Part shown: piece after piece, positions 1 to 12,974 of the stretch
Numbering within the stretch: position 1 is the stretch's first letter
Layout: each line of letters starts with the position of its first letter
Virus record (IMG/VR): IMGVR_UViG_3300047476_000972
Location: 1 to 64,000 of that record
Length of the DNA: 64,000 nucleotides
DNA from: a virus
Reading direction: 5' to 3' (one strand)
The notes under the pieces: generated by a model
What the model saw: the letters and a program-made list of their open reading frames with translations, nothing else
What the model was told of the DNA's origin: nothing
Database searches by the model: none
Made by a program: the position numbers and the translations under genes

Positions 1-2
1 AA

Positions 3-3000
3 AACCCAACCAAGGCTGATATCGCCTCTGCAATTCCACTAGAGGACTTCCTGAAGACTCGCACCGACGCTCCAGAGGGTTGGACCAAGAACGAGGATGG
101 TTCTTTCACTTCTAAGTCTGGTCAGACTGTTAAGGCAGTTGACGCTCAGCCGGAGGGTGACTACATGGTTGAAGGCGCTGGCGAAAGCAATGCGATTGAC
201 CCTGACGTTCCTCTATTCGAAATTCGCGACAAAGACGGCAAGATTCTCGGTGTTGGCCAGAACTGGGCGGGCCTGAACAAGATTGCCATGACCTACGATG
301 CTCTTAATGGAGAGGGCGATGGCACTCCAGAAGAACCAGGCCTAGACCAGACCGCTGGCGAAGGCAGTGACTGGTTTGATAGCGCAGTTGACTTTGACCA
401 CTTATCTGATCCACAGAACTGGAGCCAGTTTAAAGACGGCGAAGCCACCTATACTTCTCCTGACGGCAAGCTAAAACTTACTTGGGAACCAGACGGTGAA
501 GGCGATGTCGGCTTCGGAGCCACCGACCTTTCTGGCATTTCTGTCGAGTACGACGGTCAGCCTGTCGGATCATTCCGAGCAACTCAGCGTGACCTCGAAG
601 AAGGCGACATCGAGGATGGTCTTAAGGATCTCCTAAAGAAGGAAAGCTGGTTCAAGCCAAGTAGCCTAGTCAAGACCGAAAACGACGGCAACTCTTACGG
701 GTTTGACACCGACAAGGGCTACGTAGAAGTAACTCCAGAATTTGACAAGAGTGGCAAGTTCATCGGCTACAAGGTTGAAAAAGAAGCTCGCGATCTAATT
801 GACGAAAACCGTGAAGGCTCTTATTTCAACACCTCTAAGTTCAAGACCAAAGAGGAAGCTCTAGCTGATGCAGAGAAGTTCGCTGAGACTCTTAACGACG
901 AAGACAAACTATCTGATCTTCTAAACGAAAGCTACATGGACGACCCTGGCTTTGACCAAGCTCCGGGTAAGGGAACCGAACTAAGTGAAGCTGGCAAGAA
1001 GATTGCCAAGGACCTAGGTGACCACAAGTTCTTCTATGAAGAAGATGCTGATGGCAATCTAACCGGAGGAGAAGCAACTTACACATCTCCAGATGGCCGC
1101 GTAGAAGCTAAGTACCGCGATGGCTCTTGGTTCGATGACGAGAAGGGCTACATTCCTTGGGACGAGATCGAGGTCTCTGTTGATGGGAAGCTTGTTGACT
1201 CCTTAGTTCGAGACAAACGAGAGTCTTGGCCTGACTTCCTTGACCGCGTTGCCGCTATGTCGGAAAACGGTCTAGAAAATCCTAACTATGCAGAAGAGAA
1301 GAAGGCTAAGCGCGAGGCCGATCGTAAGGCTCGCGAAGACTTCTATAACTCACCAGAGCAGGTAGAAAAGCGCGCACAGGCCAAATGGGAGAAAGAGCAG
1401 GCAGATGCCGCTCAGGAGCAGGCCCGCGAATCTGTTGACAAAGAGGGTCTACTTAAAAAAGTAGATGACCTAGCAAACAAGATCTTTAGTGGAGATAGCG
1501 GAGCCAGCGAAGAGTTCTGGGTGGGCGATGAAGACGAAGACGGCTACCGCAACTGGGGCGTTTACAGTGAAGATGGCGATGAAGTTGCCAGCGGAGTTTT
1601 CGGACCAACTTGGGATGAGACCGATATTGCTTCTGAAATTCGCAACGGAGTCAACGCTCACTTGGACAAGAAGCTTGATGAACTTGAGCCAGCCGCTGGC
1701 CTTGACCAGAATGCAGAGGCACCAACTAAGCCACTATCTGAAAAGCAGATGGAGCCAGCGACTGACAAGCAATATGCTTTCCTAGAAGAGCTACGCTCAG
1801 AACGTGACGGCATCTCGCCCGCAACTGAGAAAGCCATTCAAGATGCACTGGACAACCGCAACCTGACTAAAGCTCAGATGGCATCAATTCTTGGAGAGGT
1901 AACCAAGAAGCCTTTCAAGCCTGGTGTTGACCCAACCAAGCCAACTGAGCGCCAAATCAACTCACTTCAGGGCTACCTGTCTACTAAGGAACTAACTCCT
2001 GACGAGATGAACGACATTCTCGCCGAGCTTGATGCAGGGCTAGATCGTGACTCAATTGAGAAGCTCACCGCTAAGCTACGTCGTCGTCCAGACCGTCAAC
2101 AGACTGAAGGTCTTGATCAGTCAGCGGGTACCCGTTTAACAACTAACCCAGACGGGAGCTCAGAGTACTTCGGCGACGGTGCAGAAGTTGTTGTAGAGAA
2201 AGACGGTGACAAGTTCAAGGTCACGAAGTCTGCGTCTCAGTTCTTGCTAGACGAGAACATCGAACACAGCTACGAAAAAACCGAGACTTACGATTCTGAA
2301 GAAGAAGCACGTAAAGCAGCGGAAGACTTTGCAGCGACCATTGATGATCGCGACAAGCTCTACGACGAGATTTACGAAGACTGGCGCAACTCTGGTGCTG
2401 GCTTTGATCAGGCACCTGGAGAAACCAAGACTCTGTCCCCAAAGATGATGGAACCAGCTACTGATGCTCAGTACAGCTATCTAGAGGGACTCTTCGAAAG
2501 CAAGAACGGCGTTGACGCTGACACGGCTCAGGCAATCACCGAAGCTTTGGAATCTAAGAATCTGACCAAGGCTCAGGCTGGTGCATTTATTGGCAAGCTC
2601 CGCGAGCTAGGTGACAAAGAAAACCTAGGCCAATATGGCAAGCCTTCTCAGAAGATGATTGACTCTGTAAAGCGTGACGTTTACGCTAAGGGTTTGTCTG
2701 ACGCTGACCGTGAGGAAATTCTTAAGGACCTAGAAAACCGCTCAAAGGGCGATGTTTCATCTATCATCAGCATGTTGAAGGACATGGACAATGTTGCTGG
2801 CGGTATGGAGAAGTACATTGACAGCCTAGTTCAGAGTGGCGATGTTAACGCTTTGAAGCGTCTACGTGAAGATGGCCGTTTTGGAGACTACAACGTTGAT
2901 TTAGACAATGCTATTTCTAAGCTAGAGTCTGGTGACAAGGGTTTTGATCAAGCAGCCGGAAAGCAGTACGGAACATCTTGGGAGCAGATGAAGCCAGAGT

Positions 3001-3797
3001 TGGTTTCGTTGGCTGAGGATACCGAGAACAGCGATGAAAAAGGCTACGCGTTCTTAAGTAAAGAATTTGTAGAGGGCCTTGACCCAAACGATATTGATGA
3101 TGCCTACTACCTTTACTCCGAGTTGATGGATGCATACAAAGCGATGCGCCCTGAATCAGAAGAAGGCAAGGCACTAGAGGCTCGCCTGAAAAAGTCAGCT
3201 GACGACTTGCTCGCCAAGATCGAGTCCGACATGGGACCTATCGAAGCAGCTAAGCGTAACCCGGACGACATGGGAAGTACTTTTGAATTTGGTAAGGTTT
3301 TTGATGAAATTGAAGATCTAATTTCTTACTACTACCCTTCAAATGCAGACGAAATTGCCGACCAGCTAACCGACGATGATGGCGGTATTGTTGGCGATGT
3401 TCGCGGAGGCGGCTGGGAAGGTTCAGTACGTTTCAACGAAGAGACTGACAAGTGGGAAGCCCGCATGACTTCTCCTGGCCAAGACTCGGAGAACTACGGC
3501 GAAGACTTCGACTCCCTGTCTGACGCTGCCAACTGGGTTGGCGCGAGCATGGCAGACGAGAACAAGTATCTTCCTCCTCTAGAGGCTCGCCTGCTCAATG
3601 ATGGTTCGCAGGAGTCTCTAGAAGATTTGATTAAAGAGTACGGTGACGATCCAGCTGTTCTAGTTGAAAAGATTCGTTCAGCTGCAGCGTGGTTCCGTAC
3701 TACTCGTCGAAACCAAGGAGACCAGATCGCTAATAAGCTGGAAGACTACGCCGACAGGGTAGAACAGCTTAATGGCGGCACCTCCCCAAAAGCCTAG
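3..3797 (+). CDS. Giant acidic multi-module head-region protein (5'-truncated by window edge); candidate virion-packaged polyprotein
   Basis: The frame is open from nt 3 (NPTKADIASAIPLEDFLKT...) through the ORF-track ATG at 165 to TAG at 3795-3797. Very D/E-rich, with internal duplicated modules and six G[LF]DQ motifs. Lies just upstream of the protease and capsid genes. Confidence 0.75.
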   Translation, partial: NPTKADIASAIPLEDFLKTRTDAPEGWTKNEDGSFTSKSGQTVKAVDAQPEGDYMVEGAGESNAIDPDVPLFEIRDKDGKILGVGQNWAGLNKIAMTYDALNGEGDGTPEEPGLDQTAGEGSDWFDSAVDFDHLSDPQNWSQFKDGEATYTSPDGKLKLTWEPDGEGDVGFGATDLSGISVEYDGQPVGSFRATQRDLEEGDIEDGLKDLLKKESWFKPSSLVKTENDGNSYGFDTDKGYVEVTPEFDKSGKFIGYKVEKEARDLIDENREGSYFNTSKFKTKEEALADAEKFAETLNDEDKLSDLLNESYMDDPGFDQAPGKGTELSEAGKKIAKDLGDHKFFYEEDADGNLTGGEATYTSPDGRVEAKYRDGSWFDDEKGYIPWDEIEVSVDGKLVDSLVRDKRESWPDFLDRVAAMSENGLENPNYAEEKKAKREADRKAREDFYNSPEQVEKRAQAKWEKEQADAAQEQARESVDKEGLLKKVDDLANKIFSGDSGASEEFWVGDEDEDGYRNWGVYSEDGDEVASGVFGPTWDETDIASEIRNGVNAHLDKKLDELEPAAGLDQNAEAPTKPLSEKQMEPATDKQYAFLEELRSERDGISPATEKAIQDALDNRNLTKAQMASILGEVTKKPFKPGVDPTKPTERQINSLQGYLSTKELTPDEMNDILAELDAGLDRDSIEKLTAKLRRRPDRQQTEGLDQSAGTRLTTNPDGSSEYFGDGAEVVVEKDGDKFKVTKSASQFLLDENIEHSYEKTETYDSEEEARKAAEDFAATIDDRDKLYDEIYEDWRNSGAGFDQAPGETKTLSPKMMEPATDAQYSYLEGLFESKNGVDADTAQAITEALESKNLTKAQAGAFIGKLRELGDKENLGQYGKPSQKMIDSVKRDVYAKGLSDADREEILKDLENRSKGDVSSIISMLKDMDNVAGGMEKYIDSLVQSGDVNALKRLREDGRFGDYNVDLDNAISKLESGDKGFDQAAGKQYGTSWEQMKPELVSLAEDTENSDEKGYAFLSKEFVEGLDPNDIDDAYYLYSELMDAYKAMRPESEEGKALEARLKKSADDLLAKIESDMGPIEAAKRNPDDMGSTFEFGKVFDEIEDLISYYYPSNADEIADQLTDDDGGIVGDVRGGGWEGSVRFNEETDKWEARMTSPGQDSENYGEDFDSLSDAANWVGASMADENKYLPPLEARLLNDGSQESLEDLIKEYGDDPAVLVEKIRSAAAWFRTTRRNQGDQIANKLEDYADRVEQLNGGTSPKA

Positions 3798-3814
3798 CCC
3801 CCGAAGAGGGGGCT
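3785..3814 (+). other. Candidate programmed -1 ribosomal frameshift signal (C_CCA_AAA + hairpin AGCCCCC-GAAGA-GGGGGCT)
   Basis: X_XXY_YYZ heptamer at 3785-3791 in the ORF1 frame, 4-nt spacer, 7-bp stem at 3796-3814. The -1 frame is open from 3773 to 6097 with no ATG/GTG/TTG before 3917. Confidence 0.75.
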
Positions 3815-6097
3815 GAGCCTGGATTAGATCAGGACGCTCCAGATTTAGCAAGAATCTCTAGCATCCTTGATAAGTACCGCACTAAACCTGCGACTACTAA
3901 TTCTGTTCGCCCTGCAATGCCTGAAGGTGAACCAGGATCCAAAACTAATCCGCTCGAGCTTACCTCGGAGCAGTTTGACGAGAAGCTTGCTTCTGTAACC
4001 GAGACCAACAAGTCCGCGGCATCTAGCGTTCTTGCTGATGTATTAGAGAAGCTACGCACCCCTAAGAATATTCAAGCTTGGGCGCGCAAATGGGATAGGG
4101 ACGCTAATCGACCTCTCCCGGTTAACCCTGCAAGTGAGACCCACTACACAGGGCCTAACTTGCTTGCGCTAGAAAACGCAGCTTCGGAAAACGGATTCAG
4201 CGACCCTCGTTGGATGAGCGCCTCTCAGGTTGCTCAGGCTGGTGGCTCGATTCCAGCCGGAACCAAGGGTACTCAGATTCTCGTACCTAGCTTCTATGTT
4301 GCCAACCGTGATGGCAAGGTCGTTGAGTACTTTGAGTTCAGAAAAGTTACTGTTTTTAACGGTGACCAGATTCAAGGAATAAATCCATACAACGCCGACG
4401 ACAACAAGTCATATACTGCAAAGGAAGCTGTAGATATTGTTCTCGACAGGATGCGCGAAGCCGCAACTCTCCGAGATGTAGAAACTCCAGAGATCTTCGG
4501 TATTCAGCTAGATAAAGATCAAAATCCTCGCTGGTCACCAAACTACGGTAGAGATGTTGATAGCGTACGACTACCACTCCGCGCAAACTTTGATAGCGAT
4601 GAGTCTTGGTTCAATGCATTTGCTCACGAGCTTATTCACAGCACTGGTAGAACTAACCGACTTAACCGAGAAGAAGTTAAGAAGGCACTGGATGGGAACA
4701 GTAATTCCTACGCAGAAGAAGAGCTAACCGCTGAGCTAGGCTCTATGCTTCTAGCAAAGATGTTCGGGATAAATTCTGACCCAAGCAACTCGATTAGCTA
4801 TCTACTCACCCACATCAAGAACCTAGACGGCGTGAATGCCGATAAGGCCGTGACTGACGCCATGACTAGGGCTCAGCTGGCGGCGGACTACCTGCTGGGT
4901 AACGACGTTCTTCCTCAGTGGAACCCGCTCAAGACTAAGGTTGCTCCAACTCTACAGTCAGCAAGAATGGCGTCTACTACTCCAGAAGACTCTAGCTTGA
5001 ACCCAAACACTAACCCTGATTCAGTTGATGCTCCTCTAGTAGGCCTTGACCAAGCCCCGGGTAAGAAGCCTTTCAACCGTGCCAATTCAGTGTCAGATAG
5101 CAAGGACGCCAAAGAGCGAGTTCTATCTGGCCTACTGGAAAAGATTAAAGAAGGTAAGGCTCCTTGGCGTAAGCCATTCAAGGACGACGCTAACTATGCT
5201 GGTGCATTCGTTCCGCGTAACCCAGCGTCAAAGCACATCTACAGCGGTATTAACTCGATTGTTCTTCGACTACACCAAGAGCTTGCTGGGTACTCAGATC
5301 CTCGCTGGATGACATACAACCAAGCCACTGATCTAGGTGGTCAGGTTCGTAAAGGATCTAAGGGTGTTCAAATTCTTGTTCCTTACAAAAGGGTCAAGAA
5401 AGAGAAGGACTCTTCAACCGGAGAAGAGAAGGTAACTGGTAGCTATGTCACCTTCGGCGTAAAGACCGTATTCAATGTTGAACAAATTGATGGCCTAAAC
5501 CTGCCAACTGTTAAGGCTGAAGCAGGCGAACCAAAAACTCCTCTAGAGTCTCAGGATTTTATTCTGGAACGCTATCAGAAGTCAATGGAAGCCAAGGGTC
5601 TGAAGGCTCCTCAGGTTTCATACACCTATGTTGGTGCGTACGGAAGCCACTCGTCTTCTCCAAACTGGAACCCAGCTTCTGACGTCATTACTCTTCCAAC
5701 CAAGGAGCAGTTCAACAGCCCAGAGGATATGTTCGACACCATTGCTCATGAGTTAGCCCACTCGACCGGACACAAGGACCGCCTTGACCGCACCGAGCTA
5801 ACTAAGAACTACGGGACAAGCAATGCAGCTCGAGGCGAAGAAGAGCTTATCGCGGAAATTTCTTCAGCGATCCTAGCTAGCATGTTCGGCGTAAACAGCG
5901 ACTTTGACAACACTGCGGCTTATGTAAAGAGCTGGCTACAGGCACTACAGGATAACCCTGATATGGTTATGAAGGCCTCTTCTGAAGCTCAGAAGGTAGT
6001 AGACTATTTGCTAGGTATGGATCTGGGAGACTGGAGCCCTATCGAGGGTTACCGATCATCAAACAAATCTAAATCAGATGGAGACTCAGATGAGTAA
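3788..6097 (+). CDS. Tandem ArdC-like protein: 2 x (ArdC-N/DUF1738 ssDNA-binding + zincin MPTase); probably translated as a -1 frameshift extension of ORF1 (ORF-track start 3917)
   Basis: Two copies of NP(A)S..Y.G.N...L....(F/Y)SDPRWM...Q....GG....G.KG..I, each followed by HExxH (HELIHSTG, HELAHSTG) and EEL.AE..S. No SD precedes ATG 3917. Confidence 0.85.
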   Translation, partial: KSLAPEEGAEPGLDQDAPDLARISSILDKYRTKPATTNSVRPAMPEGEPGSKTNPLELTSEQFDEKLASVTETNKSAASSVLADVLEKLRTPKNIQAWARKWDRDANRPLPVNPASETHYTGPNLLALENAASENGFSDPRWMSASQVAQAGGSIPAGTKGTQILVPSFYVANRDGKVVEYFEFRKVTVFNGDQIQGINPYNADDNKSYTAKEAVDIVLDRMREAATLRDVETPEIFGIQLDKDQNPRWSPNYGRDVDSVRLPLRANFDSDESWFNAFAHELIHSTGRTNRLNREEVKKALDGNSNSYAEEELTAELGSMLLAKMFGINSDPSNSISYLLTHIKNLDGVNADKAVTDAMTRAQLAADYLLGNDVLPQWNPLKTKVAPTLQSARMASTTPEDSSLNPNTNPDSVDAPLVGLDQAPGKKPFNRANSVSDSKDAKERVLSGLLEKIKEGKAPWRKPFKDDANYAGAFVPRNPASKHIYSGINSIVLRLHQELAGYSDPRWMTYNQATDLGGQVRKGSKGVQILVPYKRVKKEKDSSTGEEKVTGSYVTFGVKTVFNVEQIDGLNLPTVKAEAGEPKTPLESQDFILERYQKSMEAKGLKAPQVSYTYVGAYGSHSSSPNWNPASDVITLPTKEQFNSPEDMFDTIAHELAHSTGHKDRLDRTELTKNYGTSNAARGEEELIAEISSAILASMFGVNSDFDNTAAYVKSWLQALQDNPDMVMKASSEAQKVVDYLLGMDLGDWSPIEGYRSSNKSKSDGDSDE

Positions 6098-6257
6098 AGA
6101 AAAGCCTGACATGCTAGGCGGATATACTGAGAATGATCCTGAGTACTGGACTCTTCTAGCCAAGATAATTGGCAATCCAGTCCCAGATTATGAAGATGAC
6201 AGCGAATTCGTTGATGAAGACGGTGTTGTCATCAAGGATATCACACCTGACAAATAA
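6090..6257 (+). CDS. Small acidic hypothetical protein (55 aa, MSKEKPDMLGGYTENDPEYW...ITPDK), below ORF-track cutoff
   Basis: ATG at 6090 overlaps the end of the previous ORF; GGAG 6 nt upstream; TAA at 6255-6257. Confidence 0.6.
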   Translation: MSKEKPDMLGGYTENDPEYWTLLAKIIGNPVPDYEDDSEFVDEDGVVIKDITPDK

Positions 6258-6276
6258 ATCACTTTAATAAATAACG

Positions 6277-6284
6277 GGTAAAAT
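6277..6284 (+). promoter_or_regulatory. Recurring GGTAAAAT -10-like promoter motif upstream of the protease gene
   Basis: The same or a near-identical octamer occurs upstream of genes at 10832, 17521, 41558(-) and 51092(-). Confidence 0.55.
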
Positions 6285-6318
6285 TAGTCTAGGGTTTCTG
6301 ACTTTATAGGATTGATGG

Positions 6319-9300
6319 ATGAACCACCTAATCGGCCGCTCTGGCGAACTAGCATTCTATGCTAACAACACTCACGGTGTAGTTATTGATACTGCCGTAG
6401 GAGCCGTTGTCGCCAGCGGTGCAGCGCTAGACCTATTTGCAGAAAACAAGTGGGAGCTTTCATCGACTCCTCTCACTCAATCAGAACAACTTCTTGCTGA
6501 CAAGGTCATAGCCACTCTAGAAGAAGACGCTATTGTTGCATCTGCTGACAGGATGTACACCATCCCTAAGTCAGCTCAGGCAGAGGCGGAAAAAGCCTTG
6601 GCTTGGCGGAAAGAAGAAGGCAGAGGCGGAACCCCTGTCGGCCTTAACACTGCCCGCACCCTCGCTAAGGGCGGTCAGATTGGCATCCGCAAGATCCGCC
6701 ACATTGCTAAATACTTCCCTCGTCACGAAGTTGACAAGAAGGGTAAGGGCTGGAAGCCAGGCGAAGACAACTTCCCGTCTAACGGACGTATCGCATGGGC
6801 ACTCTGGGGTGGAGACGCCGCTTGGCGTTGGGCACGTGCCATCGTTGAGCGCGAAGACAAAAAGGAAAACTCTGTCACTGCGGGTGGATACACTATTTCT
6901 AACTACGTTGATCAGATCAACTACCCTAAGCAGAATGAAGAGCTAAATCCTTTTAAGTACGCTCACGAGCTTGACGCAAACTACGGCCCAGAGTTCTTGG
7001 CTCGAGTCTGCCTAGATGGTTCTGGCATTGACCGACTCTACATGATCGATATTGATGGTTCTGTACACGTCTGGGATGACGGGTGTTGGGACAACCTAGG
7101 TCATGTTGATGGCGACATCTGGACATATGACCGAATGCTAGATGACGTCTATGATCTTGAGGAAAAATCTCACGTAATTATTGACCCTCAGTCTGCACTT
7201 ATGATTGCAGCGCGTATGGCTGTAGACCCATATTGCAAGACTTCTGTTTTTGACCTAGACTCTGACGAAGCGGCTCTAATGGAAGCTGGCATCGGCGGAG
7301 AAGACTGGGAATTCATTGACCAAGTCATTACTGCTGCAGCTTCTGATCAGGATGGTAACTACACTCCAGAAGAGCGTTCAGCAAATGCTGGAAACCAGCC
7401 TCGCAATGCTACCGGTCAGTTTGCCAAGGTAGGCCAGAAGGTAGCTATTGGTGGAGACGCTGCTAGAGGTTCTGGCACAATCCGAGACATTGACGGTGCG
7501 ACAGGCATTGTCACCGTCGACCTTGAAGACGGTAGATCCGTCAAAGTTGGCTCTAAGTACTTAGTACCAGCAGAAAAGGCAAACAGCCGACCAAACTCAC
7601 TTCGTGTTGATGACGCTAGCAAAGCTCCTATGGACTTTTCTGGAATCATCGGGGAGCCTCGTACTCCTCAGAACAGCAAGAAGGCTCACCTTCCGGGAAC
7701 CCTACCGAAGCTAGATGTTGATGCATTTATCAACAACTACGCGTCTTGGGTAGAGAAGGAACGCTACAAGCCAAAGAACGCGGCTGACAAAGCTGCTGTT
7801 AAAAAGCGTTGGCCAAATGCCAAGTTCACTGAGACTTCTATCATTGCAGCGGCAGAAGAAAAAGAAGAGATTCTTACTCCTTCTACTTCTGACGTAAGAC
7901 CTAGATACCTTGCCATCGTTGATCAGCAAGACCCAGAGGCAATGGTTGATCTCGTTGCTGTTATCCCTAAGACCGCTACTTCCACTACTCCTCTTGTCTA
8001 TAAGCGTGAGGGAGATAAGTGGGTTCAGGATGACCAAACTCTAGCTGACCTACGCTCGGCTACCAAACCTCCAGTAATTGAACTAGATAAAGAATCCCTA
8101 AAGGATGTCTTGTCTCAGATGGCAGAGGGAAAGCCTACAGAAGAATCTGCCCCGGAGGCTGTTGCAGCTAGCTTGCTAACTGTCTTTGATGCATTTGTTG
8201 CTGCTGGCGGCCTAGACCGCAACCGTGGCAATGCGGAAGAGCTTCGCCAATACTGGACTCGTGGTAAGGGCGCTGCCAAGATTCGTTGGGGCACTCCAGG
8301 CGACTGGACTCGTTGCGTCCGTCAACTTTCAAAGTACATGGGCCCACGTGCCAAGGGCTATTGTCAGCTTCGTCACAAGGATGCCACTGGCGTATACACT
8401 GGTAGCCGTCTAAACCCGGGCCGTCGTAACGAAACTTCTAGCCTATTTGCCAGCGAGATGGACTTAGTCCAGTCAGTAGTTGCTCAGTCCGAACTAACTG
8501 CGAGAGCAAACGACGCGAGAGAGCGTCTAGGGCTGGTCGCTGGTGCAAAAATGGAGCACGGTGCCAAGTTCAACATCCCTCTACTGATCCCAGAAGACTT
8601 GGAATCAGGAGATGGTCGTAAGTTTGTAAAGGACTCTCTGTCAGTTCGAGAGCTTCCACTTCCACTCCTATGGCAGATCAAGACTGGCGACGGTCACATG
8701 GGGTCTGTAGTAGTTGGACGTATTGATTACGTAGAAAGAACCGAAAACGGTATCGGAAATGCCTATGGCGTTTTTGATACAGGAGCATATGGTCAAGAGG
8801 CAGAGCGTCTAGTACGTAACGGATTCATCCGTGGTGTTTCTGCAGATCTAGACCAGTTCGAGGCAGAAGAAGAGAAGACTGAAAATGCCGAGGACACCGA
8901 AGACGTAGGCAAGAAAAAGCTAACTATAAATCACGCCCGTGTAATGGCTGCTACAATTGTAGCTAAGCCTGCATTCCAAGAATGCACTATCTCTATTGAA
9001 GAACAACCAGCGGGAGACCAGGAGGATGAAGTGATTCCAGTTGACGGAATATACGAAGAATCCGTCGAACAAGAATTCTCTGGCGCACCGCTAGTTGCTT
9101 CAGGATTCATTGACGGCGAGATTCCTATGACACCACCAGCAGAGTGGTTCAAGGACCCTAAGCTGACTAAGGCTACCCCGATTACTGTTGACCCTTCTGG
9201 TCGCATTTACGGACACATTGCAGCTTGGCACGTAAACCACATCGGTATGCCTCGCTCTACCCGCCCACCTCGCTCAAAGAGCAAGTATGCTTACTTCCAC

Positions 9301-10824
9301 ACTGGCGTAGTCCGCTGTGCCGATGGGACTGACATGCCAGTCGGTCAGCTAACTCTTGCTGGTGGGCACGCTCCACTAACTGCTAACGCAGCTTCTGCCG
9401 CTAAGCACTATGACGACACCGCTTCTGCGATTGCCGATGTCCACATGGGTGAAGACGAGTACGGTATCTGGTGCTCTGGCTCTGTACGTCCAGACGCAAC
9501 TGAAATGCAGATTCGTGCACTTCGCGCTTCTGCTCCTTCCGGTGACTGGCGTCCAATCAACGGCTCACTTGAGCTTGTTGCTGTTTGCCAAGTAAACGTT
9601 CCAGGCTTCCCGATTGCTCGCGCGATGGTTGCTTCAGGTAAGGTTATGGCTCTAGTTGCAGCTGGCGCAAGCATGATGGCAATCATGAAGAGCCAGCACG
9701 TAGCGACTCTATCTGAGCGTGCACACAACCTAGCCGAGCTCTCGGCTAATGCTCCTGACCTACGCTCTCGCGTTAAGTCAGCTAAGAAGGCTGTAAAGAA
9801 GCAGGCTATTATTGCCGCTGCTACTAAAGCAGAGGAACTAAAGACCCGTGCTCTAGTTGCTGCAGCTGTTGCCGAGCTAGCTAAGTTCTCCGAAGAAGAG
9901 AGATCTGAACTTGCTGACAAGGGCTTCGCGCTTCCAGACGGTTCTTACCCTATTCGTAACGAGCAAGATCTACGTAACGCAATTCAGGCATATGGACGTG
10001 CAAAACGCGAGAAGCGTGTTACCGTTCGCAAGCACATTGTTAAGCGAGCCAAGGCTCTTGGTAAGGCATATCTAATTCCAGACGAATGGAAGTCAGCCGG
10101 ATCAACCGAGGCTGCTACTATTGTTGCTTCGATGCGCTCTCGACTAGCGGAGTTTGCAGAAGCTCCAGCCAAAGAAATTTCTGATGCTGACCTAGAGAAG
10201 CTCAAGGATGCTAAGCAGGAAGCTGACAAGCAAACTGAAGAAGAGATCAAGATTGCTGAAGACATCCGTACAGGTAAGACCACTGCTAAGGAAGTCTATG
10301 ACGCAGAGGGTCGCAGTAAGTACACCCCAAAGACTCAGCCTCGTGATGCTAAGGGAAAGTACCGTAAGGTCCTTGCTCGTCTAAAGCAGAACCTAGGTGT
10401 AGCTGGTCTTCAGAAAGCCCTAGAAAAAGTAGAAACTGCCGAAAACCTAGAGTTTGCTGGTGACTACGTAAACTCGGCTAAAGCCAGCAGTGAGCTACTA
10501 GGGATGATTGATCGTCTAGACACTAAGGCCCTAAACCCTGAGTCTCTAGAGAACGTCCGCTCAACCGCGGCCGAGCTCGGCAAGACCATTGCCAACCTTC
10601 CATTGCCATTCGGCAAGGAAGCTCAGAAAGTTAGATTTAGCGATCTACCTGCCGGACTAAAGACACTCATCGATGGGATGATTTCTCGAGTCGAAGCAAA
10701 GATCGGTAAAGAGGACGCAGACGTTGCAACCGCAAATCTGAAGTCCTTCATGTCCGGAGCAGATGTCTATTCTCAGGCTGAAATTCAGTCAGAGATGAAC
10801 ACCCTGCTCAGACTCCTTACCTAA
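6319..10824 (+). CDS. Multi-domain capsid maturation (prohead) protease
   Basis: Central protease-like segment ESGDGRKF...LPLPLLWQ...GH...VVGRI...RGVSADLD...AATIVAKPAF. Additional phage head domains: IAWALWGG; YWTRGKGAAKIRWGTPGDWTRC; DUF6582-like ALPDGSYPIRNEQDLRNAI. Directly upstream of the capsid gene. Confidence 0.75.
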   Translation: MNHLIGRSGELAFYANNTHGVVIDTAVGAVVASGAALDLFAENKWELSSTPLTQSEQLLADKVIATLEEDAIVASADRMYTIPKSAQAEAEKALAWRKEEGRGGTPVGLNTARTLAKGGQIGIRKIRHIAKYFPRHEVDKKGKGWKPGEDNFPSNGRIAWALWGGDAAWRWARAIVEREDKKENSVTAGGYTISNYVDQINYPKQNEELNPFKYAHELDANYGPEFLARVCLDGSGIDRLYMIDIDGSVHVWDDGCWDNLGHVDGDIWTYDRMLDDVYDLEEKSHVIIDPQSALMIAARMAVDPYCKTSVFDLDSDEAALMEAGIGGEDWEFIDQVITAAASDQDGNYTPEERSANAGNQPRNATGQFAKVGQKVAIGGDAARGSGTIRDIDGATGIVTVDLEDGRSVKVGSKYLVPAEKANSRPNSLRVDDASKAPMDFSGIIGEPRTPQNSKKAHLPGTLPKLDVDAFINNYASWVEKERYKPKNAADKAAVKKRWPNAKFTETSIIAAAEEKEEILTPSTSDVRPRYLAIVDQQDPEAMVDLVAVIPKTATSTTPLVYKREGDKWVQDDQTLADLRSATKPPVIELDKESLKDVLSQMAEGKPTEESAPEAVAASLLTVFDAFVAAGGLDRNRGNAEELRQYWTRGKGAAKIRWGTPGDWTRCVRQLSKYMGPRAKGYCQLRHKDATGVYTGSRLNPGRRNETSSLFASEMDLVQSVVAQSELTARANDARERLGLVAGAKMEHGAKFNIPLLIPEDLESGDGRKFVKDSLSVRELPLPLLWQIKTGDGHMGSVVVGRIDYVERTENGIGNAYGVFDTGAYGQEAERLVRNGFIRGVSADLDQFEAEEEKTENAEDTEDVGKKKLTINHARVMAATIVAKPAFQECTISIEEQPAGDQEDEVIPVDGIYEESVEQEFSGAPLVASGFIDGEIPMTPPAEWFKDPKLTKATPITVDPSGRIYGHIAAWHVNHIGMPRSTRPPRSKSKYAYFHTGVVRCADGTDMPVGQLTLAGGHAPLTANAASAAKHYDDTASAIADVHMGEDEYGIWCSGSVRPDATEMQIRALRASAPSGDWRPINGSLELVAVCQVNVPGFPIARAMVASGKVMALVAAGASMMAIMKSQHVATLSERAHNLAELSANAPDLRSRVKSAKKAVKKQAIIAAATKAEELKTRALVAAAVAELAKFSEEERSELADKGFALPDGSYPIRNEQDLRNAIQAYGRAKREKRVTVRKHIVKRAKALGKAYLIPDEWKSAGSTEAATIVASMRSRLAEFAEAPAKEISDADLEKLKDAKQEADKQTEEEIKIAEDIRTGKTTAKEVYDAEGRSKYTPKTQPRDAKGKYRKVLARLKQNLGVAGLQKALEKVETAENLEFAGDYVNSAKASSELLGMIDRLDTKALNPESLENVRSTAAELGKTIANLPLPFGKEAQKVRFSDLPAGLKTLIDGMISRVEAKIGKEDADVATANLKSFMSGADVYSQAEIQSEMNTLLRLLT

Positions 10825-10831
10825 AAAGTAA

Positions 10832-10839
10832 GGTACAAT
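10832..10839 (+). promoter_or_regulatory. GGTACAAT -10-like promoter motif for the capsid gene
   Basis: Variant of the recurring GGTAAAAT motif, about 110 nt upstream of the capsid GTG. Confidence 0.55.
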
Positions 10840-10847
10840 TAGTGATA

Positions 10848-10952
10848 GGTGGAGCGCCTCGCACATTTCGTGCTGAGTCCCTCAGCCTTGACTGTTCACC
10901 ATGAGTGAGGATTTCTCATTCATAAACCAATACTGGCCTAGGAGGTACAGTG
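10848..10952 (+). promoter_or_regulatory. Structured 5' leader of the major capsid gene (several hairpins; last one occludes the SD and GTG)
   Basis: GCTGAG-TCC-CTCAGC at 10872-10886; ATGAGTGAG-GATTT-CTCATTCAT at 10901-10923; TACTGGCCT/AGGTACAGTG at 10931-10952. Confidence 0.45.
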
Positions 10953-12974
10953 TACGACCAGATTAAAACACAGCTAGACACTCTGGCTGATCTTAGCGAT
11001 GAACAACTCGCTGAGCTTCAGACTCAGATCGTCGGCGAGTTTGAGTCGATCGATGCTGATGAACCAACTTCTCAGTCAGTTGATGCGATGACATCCCTTG
11101 CGGATTCCCTTGACATCGTACGTGGTGAGCTTTCTCGTCGCGAGGCCCTCGCTGAAGAGTTAGCTGCTCGTGCGGCTGAGGCTACTGCCCGTATTAAGGG
11201 TGGAGCTGAAGAAGGAGAGGAAATGGCTATGGAAGACATGCCAATCGTGGAAGAGGCCCCTGTAGAAGAGGCCCCTGTTGAGGAAGCCCCAGTAGTAGAA
11301 GCAGAGGAAACTCCTGCTGACGAAGTTACTGAGACTCCTGAAGAGGAAAAGAAGGAAGAGGAAGAGGACAAGGAAGAGCCTATGAAGGCATCTGCTGAGA
11401 CCGAAACCGCTCCTGAAACTTCAGCATCAATTGACCAGGAATCAGGTTCTGAACTATCGACCGAATCGGTTGAGACTGTTGACGAGACCATTACTGCAGA
11501 CGGTTCTGCTGAGGAAGTAGTTGCTGATGAAGCACCTGCTGCCGAGGTAGAAGTAGAGACTATCGAAGCCGCGGCCGAGGTAGTTGTAGAAGCAGTAGAG
11601 GGATCAGAAGCATCAGCCGAAGAAACCACTTTAGAAACAACAACCGCTCTTGTAGAAGAGCAGAAAGAGCAGGCACTAGTGAGCGCCGCAGCAGAACAGC
11701 CTTTTGAGGCTCCAGCTGACCGTCAGCCTGTAGTTCAGGTATCAGAGGCAGCTCCAGTGGCAATTACCGCTGGCGCAGACATCCCTGGCTACACCGCAGG
11801 CAGCACCATTAACGACATGTACGAAGTAGCTTCGGCTATGGAGAAGCGTATCCACTCGCTACGTCGTGTAAACGGCGGCGATGGAGAGCAGCACATCGTT
11901 GCATCTATCACCACCCAGTACCCAGAAGAGCGTACCCTAACTGCTAACGCAGAAGAGAACGCACTGAAGATTGGTAACGTTGTAGGTCAGGACGCACTTG
12001 TTGCTTCTGGTGGCCACGCTGCTCCATTCGAAGTCAAGTACGACATCTTCTCGATCGGTTCAACCACTGTACGCCCAGTTCGCGATGCATTGCCTCGCTT
12101 CCAGGCTGACCGTGGCGGTATCCGCTTCGTAACTCCACCATCATTCGCTGCTGGTACCTACGCTGACGCTGTTGGTGTATGGACTGCTGCAACTGATGCT
12201 GACCCACAGTCTGCTACCAAGACTAGCTACACCGTAGTCGCTGCTTCAGAGAACACCGTTTCTACTGACGCTGTTACTCTGCAGCTACAGTTTGGTAACC
12301 TCATGACTCGTGCTTACCCAGAGTTGATTGCTCGCCACAACGAGCTAGCTCTTGTACAGCACGCTCGCGAGGCTGAGCAGAACTTGCTAAGCAAGATTGG
12401 TGACGCATCTACTGCTGTTACTACCACTAACCTAATCGGTTTTGGTCGTGACTTCCTAGTTCAGATCCGTCGTGCAGCTGTTGCTTACCGCTCACGTCAC
12501 CGCATTGACCCACAGACCCGCTTGAAGGCAATCGTTCCTTCATGGATCTACGAGGCAATGGCAGCTGACCTAACTCTATCGATGCCTGGTGACGGTACTC
12601 TTGCAGTATCAAAGTCAGAAATCGACGGCTACCTAGCAACCGTTAACGTTGACCTAGTAGCTTCTCTAGACGCAACTGTCTTCGGCTCACAGGGTGCATC
12701 TGCACTTCTAGAGTTCCCAGACAGCTTCGTTTGGTACCTATTCGCTGAGGGAACATTCTTGTTCCTAGACGGCGGTACCCTAGACCTAGGTATCATCCGT
12801 GACTCTTCACTAGTCGGCACCAACGACTACAAGATGTTCACTGAGACCTTTGAGAATGTTGCTAAGGTCGGCATCGAGGCTCTTAAGATCACCTCGACCA
12901 TCTCAATCAACGGTGTTGCTGCAGCTCTGCGCGACACCACTGGTGGCACCGCTGCAGCCACCATCGAGCTCTAA
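10950..12974 (+). CDS. Major capsid protein with N-terminal acidic scaffold region (hexamer-type MCP)
   Basis: AGGAGG SD with GTG start. N-terminal helical and E/A/P-rich low-complexity region, then a capsid-like domain after LVASGG (ALPRFQADRGG...LDLGIIRDSSLVGTNDYKMFTETFE). Confidence 0.85.
   Translation: MYDQIKTQLDTLADLSDEQLAELQTQIVGEFESIDADEPTSQSVDAMTSLADSLDIVRGELSRREALAEELAARAAEATARIKGGAEEGEEMAMEDMPIVEEAPVEEAPVEEAPVVEAEETPADEVTETPEEEKKEEEEDKEEPMKASAETETAPETSASIDQESGSELSTESVETVDETITADGSAEEVVADEAPAAEVEVETIEAAAEVVVEAVEGSEASAEETTLETTTALVEEQKEQALVSAAAEQPFEAPADRQPVVQVSEAAPVAITAGADIPGYTAGSTINDMYEVASAMEKRIHSLRRVNGGDGEQHIVASITTQYPEERTLTANAEENALKIGNVVGQDALVASGGHAAPFEVKYDIFSIGSTTVRPVRDALPRFQADRGGIRFVTPPSFAAGTYADAVGVWTAATDADPQSATKTSYTVVAASENTVSTDAVTLQLQFGNLMTRAYPELIARHNELALVQHAREAEQNLLSKIGDASTAVTTTNLIGFGRDFLVQIRRAAVAYRSRHRIDPQTRLKAIVPSWIYEAMAADLTLSMPGDGTLAVSKSEIDGYLATVNVDLVASLDATVFGSQGASALLEFPDSFVWYLFAEGTFLFLDGGTLDLGIIRDSSLVGTNDYKMFTETFENVAKVGIEALKITSTISINGVAAALRDTTGGTAAATIEL

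Follow-up and report, generated by a model that had tools for sequence, protein, structure and literature searches.

Polyvalent proteins were defined by Iyer, Burroughs, Anand, de Souza and Aravind in 2017, who proposed that these proteins are packaged and delivered and that their domains are released autoproteolytically by a metallopeptidase domain (MPTase); no ribosomal frameshift and no cleavage motif were described in that study (PMC5512222). For the ArdC protein of the IncW plasmid R388, no protease substrate was found (PMC7213743). Here we present a locus from the IMG/VR virus record IMGVR_UViG_3300047476_000972, in which an ArdC-type MPTase lies behind a putative -1 slip site, at the end of a chain punctuated by a short repeated tag, G[LF]DQ. 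The window, i.e. the whole stretch of DNA that was analysed, comprises bases 1-64000 of this linear contig of 77.5 kb, which stems from an uncultured lake phage and is estimated to be 45% complete. The locus consists of two overlapping open reading frames (ORFs), termed ORF A and ORF B, which are followed by a putative prohead protease gene (ORF C) and the major capsid gene (ORF D; Table 1).

The best explanation of the sequence data is that ORF A-B represents the variable 'polyvalent protein' gene which a large siphovirus, a relative of the actinobacteriophages, has in its head module. We see about an even chance that its product is a head-packaged cargo protein and that the substoichiometric zincin of its frameshift form is responsible for cutting at the tag. 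That a whole family of lake siphoviruses might use such a retrovirus-like strategy, with a frameshift zincin (ArdC-type here, lethal-factor-like elsewhere) cutting a cassette-specific tag, is a somewhat more tentative proposal. A literature search gave no published account of a frameshift-extended, tag-punctuated polyvalent arrangement. The initial annotation of this DNA, which did not recognise the combination as a described system, is thus right for the arrangement as a whole within the literature that could be searched, but its parts, the polyvalent proteins and the proposed autoproteolysis by the MPTase, were already known (Iyer et al. 2017).

A probable frameshift extension with two ArdC units

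ORF B contains two stretches each of ArdcN (PF08401, E 3.2e-47) and MPTase-PolyVal (PF18818, E 2.6e-48), arranged in the two-domain layout of the ArdC family with ArdC-N in front of the metalloprotease domain. The HExxH motifs are found at residues 285 and 659 of ORF B, and their positions, as well as that of the glutamate in EELIAEI/EELTAEL, are conserved in the two MPTase domains. The second unit aligns end to end with R388 ArdC (6i89, residues 8-284 of 297; E 5.8e-42), and this alignment includes the HExxH and the third metal ligand, the glutamate of the downstream EELIAEI. The two complete units of ArdC-N and zincin that the initial annotation had read from the letters alone are therefore confirmed by Pfam (E ~1e-47) and by the alignment to 6i89. 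ORF A possesses no HExxH and matches no peptidase family, so that at this locus a protease is present only in the frameshift form.

The two ORFs overlap in the sequence TCC CCA AAA GCC TAG. A hairpin begins 3-6 nt after the slippery heptamer, and the 45 nt downstream fold at -21.6 kcal/mol, which is below all of 200 background windows. The open part of the -1 frame extends from 3773 to 6097 (774 aa), with the first ATG at 3917.

For comparison, 79 related loci (L-numbers) were collected from IMG/VR via ORF C. Twelve of these 79 fetched loci contain ArdC with a double unit, and in ten of the twelve the junction between the A and B parts is a -1 change, consisting of CCCAAAA or AAAAAAA followed by GCN, a stop codon and a C5-N5-G5 hairpin. 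In L067 and L073, both halves lie in one frame and form a single ORF of 3255 aa. The layout is also found in relatives without ArdC. There are 29 distinct two-ORF junctions at this position (the slot), coming from independent metagenomes, and in each of them an in-frame X_XXY_YYZ heptamer (CCCAAAA or AAAAAAA) precedes the end of the stop codon by 3 or 6 nt. At 26 of them, the stretch of 45 nt that follows has a more stable fold than 94% or more of the local windows, and the stem sequences differ between lineages.

Among the relatives, ORF B has neither a conserved start codon nor a conserved Shine-Dalgarno sequence, and the first possible start of L024 is located 81 codons into the frame. On the protein level, the -1 frame is conserved right from the slip site (first 40-80 codons), and the overlap and the tag located there are conserved in it. 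With a zero-frame heptamer in the ORF overlap, a structure downstream of it, conservation in diverged relatives and no start of its own for ORF B, the comparison makes a programmed -1 frameshift very likely. The frameshift postulated in the initial annotation is thereby borne out by the 29 distinct junctions and by the natural in-frame fusions.

Two further observations concern the slip sites of the relatives. In L048, the ArdC cassette is split by the same CCCAAAA site, which lies much further upstream of the ArdC units. The extensions lacking ArdC share the motif [RKN][NKQE][FY]D[LT]S..[LIV]R approximately 20-35 residues past the slip site (L010:6140-6300, L019, L026, L027, L059, L064, L070).

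A tag between the modules of the proposed cargo chain

The tag G[LF]DQ is present eight times in the chain, compared to 0.058 expected occurrences and a maximum of two in 20,000 shuffles. None of the other coding frames in the 64 kb contains it; the lone extra match in the six-frame translation (nt 77) lies in a non-coding frame. The 35 metagenomic homologs of ORF A that were used for the tag statistics contain 167 unique sites with a spacing of 90-380 aa, from which the consensus [DE][DE]x(P)-G-[LF]-D-Q-[DAK]-A-[PG] was derived. In the AlphaFold2 model, all six tags of ORF A are located in low-confidence coil between folded modules, for which the probability by chance is 0.24^6 (~2e-4), and the two tags of ORF B are located in a disordered leader and in the linker between the ArdC units. 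A tag past the slip site is found in every relative with ArdC, and the glutamine between the ArdC units shows almost no variation among 38 double-unit relatives. Two further candidates were rejected as tags, DLDQ in ORF C and GFSQ in a protein of 291 aa encoded downstream of the capsid gene, each being part of conserved and apparently folded sequence in all relatives.

ORF A is open at its 5' end because the window begins at base 1 of the contig; full-length relatives have 1723-1827 aa, and therefore about 460-560 N-terminal residues are missing here. The trans-frame product thus exceeds 2031 aa and is divided into nine segments; besides two copies each of ArdC-N and MPTase, it has folded modules to which Pfam assigns no family. 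In ORF A, Pfam detected nothing above threshold, none of its 35 metagenomic homologs carries a function name, and its sole PHROG match, phrog_636 (residues 803-989), is itself without known function. The ESM Atlas contained no usable match, and GenBank phages gave none to positions 1-12000 of the window (megablast) or to ORF A (tblastn). When the ORF A model was compared with the PDB by Foldseek, no match reached E <= 0.001; the rows beyond this threshold are only faint Whirly/PUR-like (ssDNA/RNA-binding) ones at E ~0.3. Against BFVD, the TM-scores of 0.05-0.09 to giant phage proteins (MuF-C-terminal, internal head proteins) are unusable as evidence. Some ORF A homologs are labelled 'RNA-binding protein Jag' by JGI. 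ORF A is internally duplicated and contains two ...ATDxQYxxLExL... helical modules (~aa 575-700 and 810-975) and two TYTSPDG beta modules.

We consider it probable that the tags are processing sites. An alternative would be that the tag is not cut at all and the chain stays intact, the tag being a conserved linker or short linear motif, for instance a peptide that docks to the capsid interior, the portal or the DNA, or a relic of module duplication. Since the modules of ORF A are visibly duplicated, their linkers would have been copied along, and several polyvalent proteins are delivered uncut (PMC5512222). However, all joints have retained the tag, whereas the modules in between diverge or are exchanged. 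Within a cassette, the variable position of the tag changes in concert (D in the window type, A in L067), which points to one reader. Moreover, tags are found at the slip-site joint and between the ArdC units, where a release makes functional sense, and a peptidase is present in every cassette. Altogether, an uncut linker motif appears unlikely.

A new finding is that, among the relatives, the form of the tag depends on the cassette: G[LF]DQ in the clades of the window and of L005/L008, [DS]LDQ in L016, GFAQ[KE][PA]G in L067 and PSQNRE in L029, the zincin of which is a different one. Every ArdC cassette of the related loci has a tag of the hydrophobic-x-Q type. Most ArdC cassettes contain 8-16 copies of the strict G[LF]xQ, the truncated L011 has two, and about 40 relatives without ArdC have none or one. 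The ArdC cassette of L067 (2-9766; also L073:2-9766) contains 14 GFAQ[KE][PA]G tags and that of L048 (2-9765) about 12.

In 18 of 20 ArdC-less -1 extensions, HExGH is followed by SxYG...ExFAE, a signature which matches anthrax lethal factor and ATLF weakly; the two remaining ORFs are short, and their alignment to the L068 extension is confined to its N-terminal part. A tblastn search with one of these extensions (L007) against GenBank phages gave no match. Most of the single-ORF giants in the slot have an HExxH near the C-terminus. A zincin behind the frameshift is the rule of the family in nearly all lineages; that relatives without ArdC also have one there or at the C-terminus is new here. 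The giant of L029 (L029:1-9261; also L055:1-9264), a single ORF of 3087 aa with seven (P)[SN]QNRE[GNI] tags, a GNAT domain and an HEIGH zincin, is by its predicted content a second pairing of tag and zincin, with a different tag. Candidate punctuation repeats were also seen elsewhere, namely ten copies of KP[TA]PDA[DE] in L065 (3-9271) and four of [DG]xEMNM[PL] in L066 (3-7355).

Table 1 Positions of the features of the ORF A-B locus and of the neighbouring genes within the window
Feature	Position	Strand	Remarks
ORF A, putative zero-frame cargo polyprotein	3..3797	+	frame 3, 1264 aa; open at 5' end
Tag 1, GLDQ	339..350	+	model coil 29-55, low pLDDT
Tag 2, GFDQ	948..959	+	model coil 247-262
Tag 3, GLDQ	1698..1709	+	model coil 496-517
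Tag 4, GLDQ	2109..2120	+	model coil 629-662
Tag 5, GFDQ	2400..2411	+	model coil 715-747
Tag 6, GFDQ	2940..2951	+	model coil 912-925
Slippery heptamer C_CCA_AAA	3785..3791	+	zero frame of ORF A
Stop TAG (3795-3797) and hairpin	3795..3815	+	8-bp stem 3795-3802/3808-3815, C5/G5 core, 5-nt loop
ORF B, putative -1 frame extension	3791..6097	+	reading resumes at the re-paired A of the heptamer; 2031-aa trans-frame product in the window
Tag 7, GLDQ	3821..3832	+	ORF B, 10 codons past the slip site; pLDDT <50
ArdC unit 1 (ArdC-N + MPTase)	3920..4942	+	HELIH at 4625-4639
Tag 8, GLDQ	5042..5053	+	ORF B, linker between the two ArdC units
ArdC unit 2 (ArdC-N + MPTase)	5105..6052	+	HELAH at 5747-5761
ORF C, context	6319..10824	+	1501 aa; matches to PHROG head-maturation-protease families; rival candidate for the cutting enzyme
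ORF D, major capsid protein with acidic N-terminal extension	10950..12974	+	MCP_Sipho NF033847, E 4.5e-95; no G[LF]xQ tag

Proposed mechanism and candidate enzymes for the tag

According to our proposal, most ribosomes would stop at the TAG at 3795 and produce a cargo chain, in which an N-terminal anchor domain and small folded modules are connected by disordered linkers, each with [DE][DE]xP-G-[LF]-D-Q-[DA]-A-[PG]. A minority of ribosomes, stalled by the hairpin, would slip by -1 on C_CCA_AAA and add the two units of ArdC-N and zincin. Since the seventh tag follows the slip site by only ten codons, the long and the short form would share nearly the same last cargo module. Both chains may then be loaded into the procapsid, where the tags would serve as cleavage sites and the substoichiometric MPTase of the long form as the cutter, freeing the cargo modules and two ArdC-like proteins. 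The latter might leave with the DNA and counter restriction.

As to the cutting enzyme, the MPTase is our candidate, although only a tentative one. It is the only peptidase in the ArdC cassette. In the capsid protein, the N-terminal junction ...EQAPVTAAAEQPFEAPADRQPVVQV is conserved across the phage family, and the likewise conserved motif [DE]GSE[LA]S[TA] occurs twice (11445-11459 and 11601-11615), exclusively in the acidic N-terminal extension; these may be either scaffold motifs or native sites of the prohead protease. Neither the junction nor the GSE[LA]S motifs differ between the lineages, and no G[LF]xQ is found there. A tag that depends on the cassette, together with constant capsid motifs, speaks in favour of a reader that the cassette itself encodes and against the prohead protease.

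Several points weigh against cutting by the MPTase, or against cleavage as such. The combination of [LF]-x-Q with a small residue resembles the sites of prohead proteases with the assemblin fold (phi-x-E/A, phi being hydrophobic), which are L/I-x-E in T4 and V/L-x-A|S in herpesviruses. The AlphaFold2 model shows no confidence bump at the tags. Most of the ArdC-less cassettes possess a zincin and no detectable repeated tag. The co-occurrence of motif, frameshift signal and MPTase, to which the initial annotation pointed, is consistent inside the phage family; however, it is not independent evidence and may reflect common descent, because the cassette halves A and B are homologous across the ArdC lineages and thus form one homologous cassette. 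In addition, single-unit ArdC-MPTase proteins with about 60% identity to the second unit (P0055-P0074) have no phi-x-Q tag in the matching linker, and the same applies to some double-unit relatives (P0017-21, P0049, P0053). All members of the family are contigs of uncultured phages, and the ArdC cassette was found in none of the cultured phages in GenBank. When searched with ORF B, GenBank phages gave only stand-alone ArdC genes with about 32% identity, from phiCbK-like and marine phages, and therefore no cultured model phage was found. Finally, N4 vRNAP, ArdC and TraC1 are transferred uncut despite their MPTase domains (PMC5512222), and the protease mutant E229A of R388 ArdC retains anti-restriction activity (PMC7213743).

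Some of these points would suit the possibility that the tags are cut by the ORF C prohead protease inside the procapsid, in the same way as T4 gp21 and phiKZ gp175 cut internal head proteins. The frameshift would then limit the dose of the ArdC cargo only, and the MPTase would act on host targets or not at all. In favour of this are the resemblance of hydrophobic-x-Q plus a small residue to assemblin-fold sites, the close ArdC-MPTase relatives without tag, the location of ORF A-B directly upstream of the protease and capsid genes, and the fact that known ArdC and N4 vRNAP are not self-processed (PMC5512222). Nevertheless, we regard it as quite unlikely, since no G[LF]xQ is present in the capsid protein or in the linkers of ORF C. 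The sole DLDQ of ORF C belongs to a conserved GVSADLDQ, which we read by eye as the serine motif of the protease. Furthermore, the capsid junction is nearly identical whether the tag of the cargo is G[LF]DQ, GFAQ or PSQNRE or is missing altogether, and thus the protease's own substrates do not change with the tag. Relatives such as L058 are closer to the window in ORF C (73%) and have no tag, whereas it is present in more distant ones such as L067 (48%).

That no recoding takes place, so that ORF B would be a separate gene or the change of frame an assembly error or a pseudogene, is highly improbable: gene callers do label ORF B-like proteins as stand-alone 'ArdC' genes, but the -1 layout of heptamer and hairpin recurs in 29 distinct junctions from independent metagenomes, a conserved start or Shine-Dalgarno sequence is missing (with 81 codons to the first possible start in L024), the overlap and the tag are kept in the -1 frame, and natural in-frame versions exist in L067 and L073.

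Genomic context and comparison with known systems

In the relatives, the gene order is portal (phrog_776), two small genes, ORF A, ORF B, protease ORF C and capsid. The position of the locus directly upstream of the prohead protease and capsid genes, as given in the initial annotation, is therefore supported by the PHROG and MCP_Sipho matches. A non-coding gap of 220 nt (6098-6318) separates the end of ORF B from ORF C. A protease signature of the HK97/S78 type (GDGH..., GVSAD...PAF), judged by eye, lies at aa ~740-900 of ORF C, and a second region with PHROG matches to 'head maturation protease' at aa 942-1183; the protease region has no sequence relative in the PDB. In L024 (L024:9998-14945) and also in L039, L046, L054 and L064, ORF C is split. 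This was considered as a second frameshift and rejected, as these are two overlapping genes; the split genes of the L024 type carry a duplicated GAAKIRWG..PGDW..C domain.

The capsid protein shares 68% identity with its counterpart in the uncultured Actinomycetia phage DSL-LC01 and about 47-56% with the capsid proteins of Microbacterium, Arthrobacter and Gordonia siphoviruses (100-195 kb). These phages also contain giant unannotated ORFs between their portal and protease/capsid genes, and the N-terminal domain of ORF A is weakly common to the giant proteins of DSL-LC01 and A3Wally. Within the family, the content of the slot varies considerably. ArdC cassettes are spread over at least four separate clades of the capsid tree, and the slot giants L058:1549-9198 and L009:1296-9269 combine a UvrD-type SF1 helicase (Pfam E 3e-18 and 2e-12) with a C-terminal HExxH. 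Other cargo in the slot includes a GNAT domain, and ORF-B-like relatives carry ADP-ribosyltransferase and ParB-like domains. The location between portal and protease, the weakly shared N-terminal domain and the UvrD or GNAT cargo of the relatives speak for the proposed packaging.

If the proposal is correct, the locus would represent a new class of programmed frameshift in tailed phages, beyond the tail-chaperone and capsid cases, which doses an enzyme instead of a structural extension. Such a frameshift is missed by standard annotation because ORF B is called as a stand-alone ArdC gene. The tag would provide a concrete, peptide-testable candidate substrate for the MPTase of polyvalent proteins and ArdC, and with G-[LF]-D-Q-x-A-[PG], a substrate would be defined for an ArdC-type metallopeptidase for the first time. 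The slot itself would be a hypervariable position in the head module, at which cassettes with anti-defence cargo (ArdC, UvrD helicase, GNAT, ADP-ribosyltransferase and ParB-like domains in the relatives) are swapped between phages with otherwise similar capsid genes. This might be of use for the discovery of new counter-defence proteins.

The locus shares with the polyvalent proteins the giant multi-domain protein near the head genes and the zincin MPTase as a hub, which is often paired with ArdC-N. Unrelated domains are combined here as well, the MPTase hub has its HExxH and downstream glutamate, and the neighbourhood consists of head genes. In contrast to them, a conserved -1 slip site precedes the peptidase here, and a repeated tag connects the modules. 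With R388 ArdC (PDB 6i89/6sna) it shares the unit of two domains, ArdC-N for ssDNA binding and an HExxH...E metalloprotease. However, R388 ArdC is a stand-alone protein of 297 aa made in the recipient cell, whereas the phage has two tandem units, which would form the frameshift-dependent C-terminus of a chain of about 2500 aa in the head module.

Short repeated motifs in proteins destined for the capsid interior are also known from the processing of head proteins in T4 and phiKZ. The prohead proteases cut at L/I-x-E in the case of T4 gp21 and at S/A/G-x-E in the case of the phiKZ-like gp175. There, the motif is carried by capsid and scaffold proteins; here, these proteins are without it and the tag follows the cargo cassette.

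The late heptamer with a stem-loop is a feature shared with the known -1 frameshifts of phages (the tail assembly chaperone gpG/GT, the major head protein of Lactobacillus phage A2, T7 gene 10A/10B) and of dnaX, all of which yield a fixed ratio of two products with a common N-terminus. The known phage frameshifts add short segments to structural or assembly proteins, whereas at this locus about 770 aa of enzyme domains would be added to a cargo protein. The retroviral Gag/Gag-Pro-Pol system offers a functional analogy, with its excess polyprotein, a minor -1 frameshift form (from a heptamer and an RNA structure) that contains the protease, and defined sites in the linkers. The differences are that the putative protease here is a zincin and not an aspartic protease, that the virus here is a tailed phage with double-stranded DNA, and that cleavage and packaging are only inferred for the phage.

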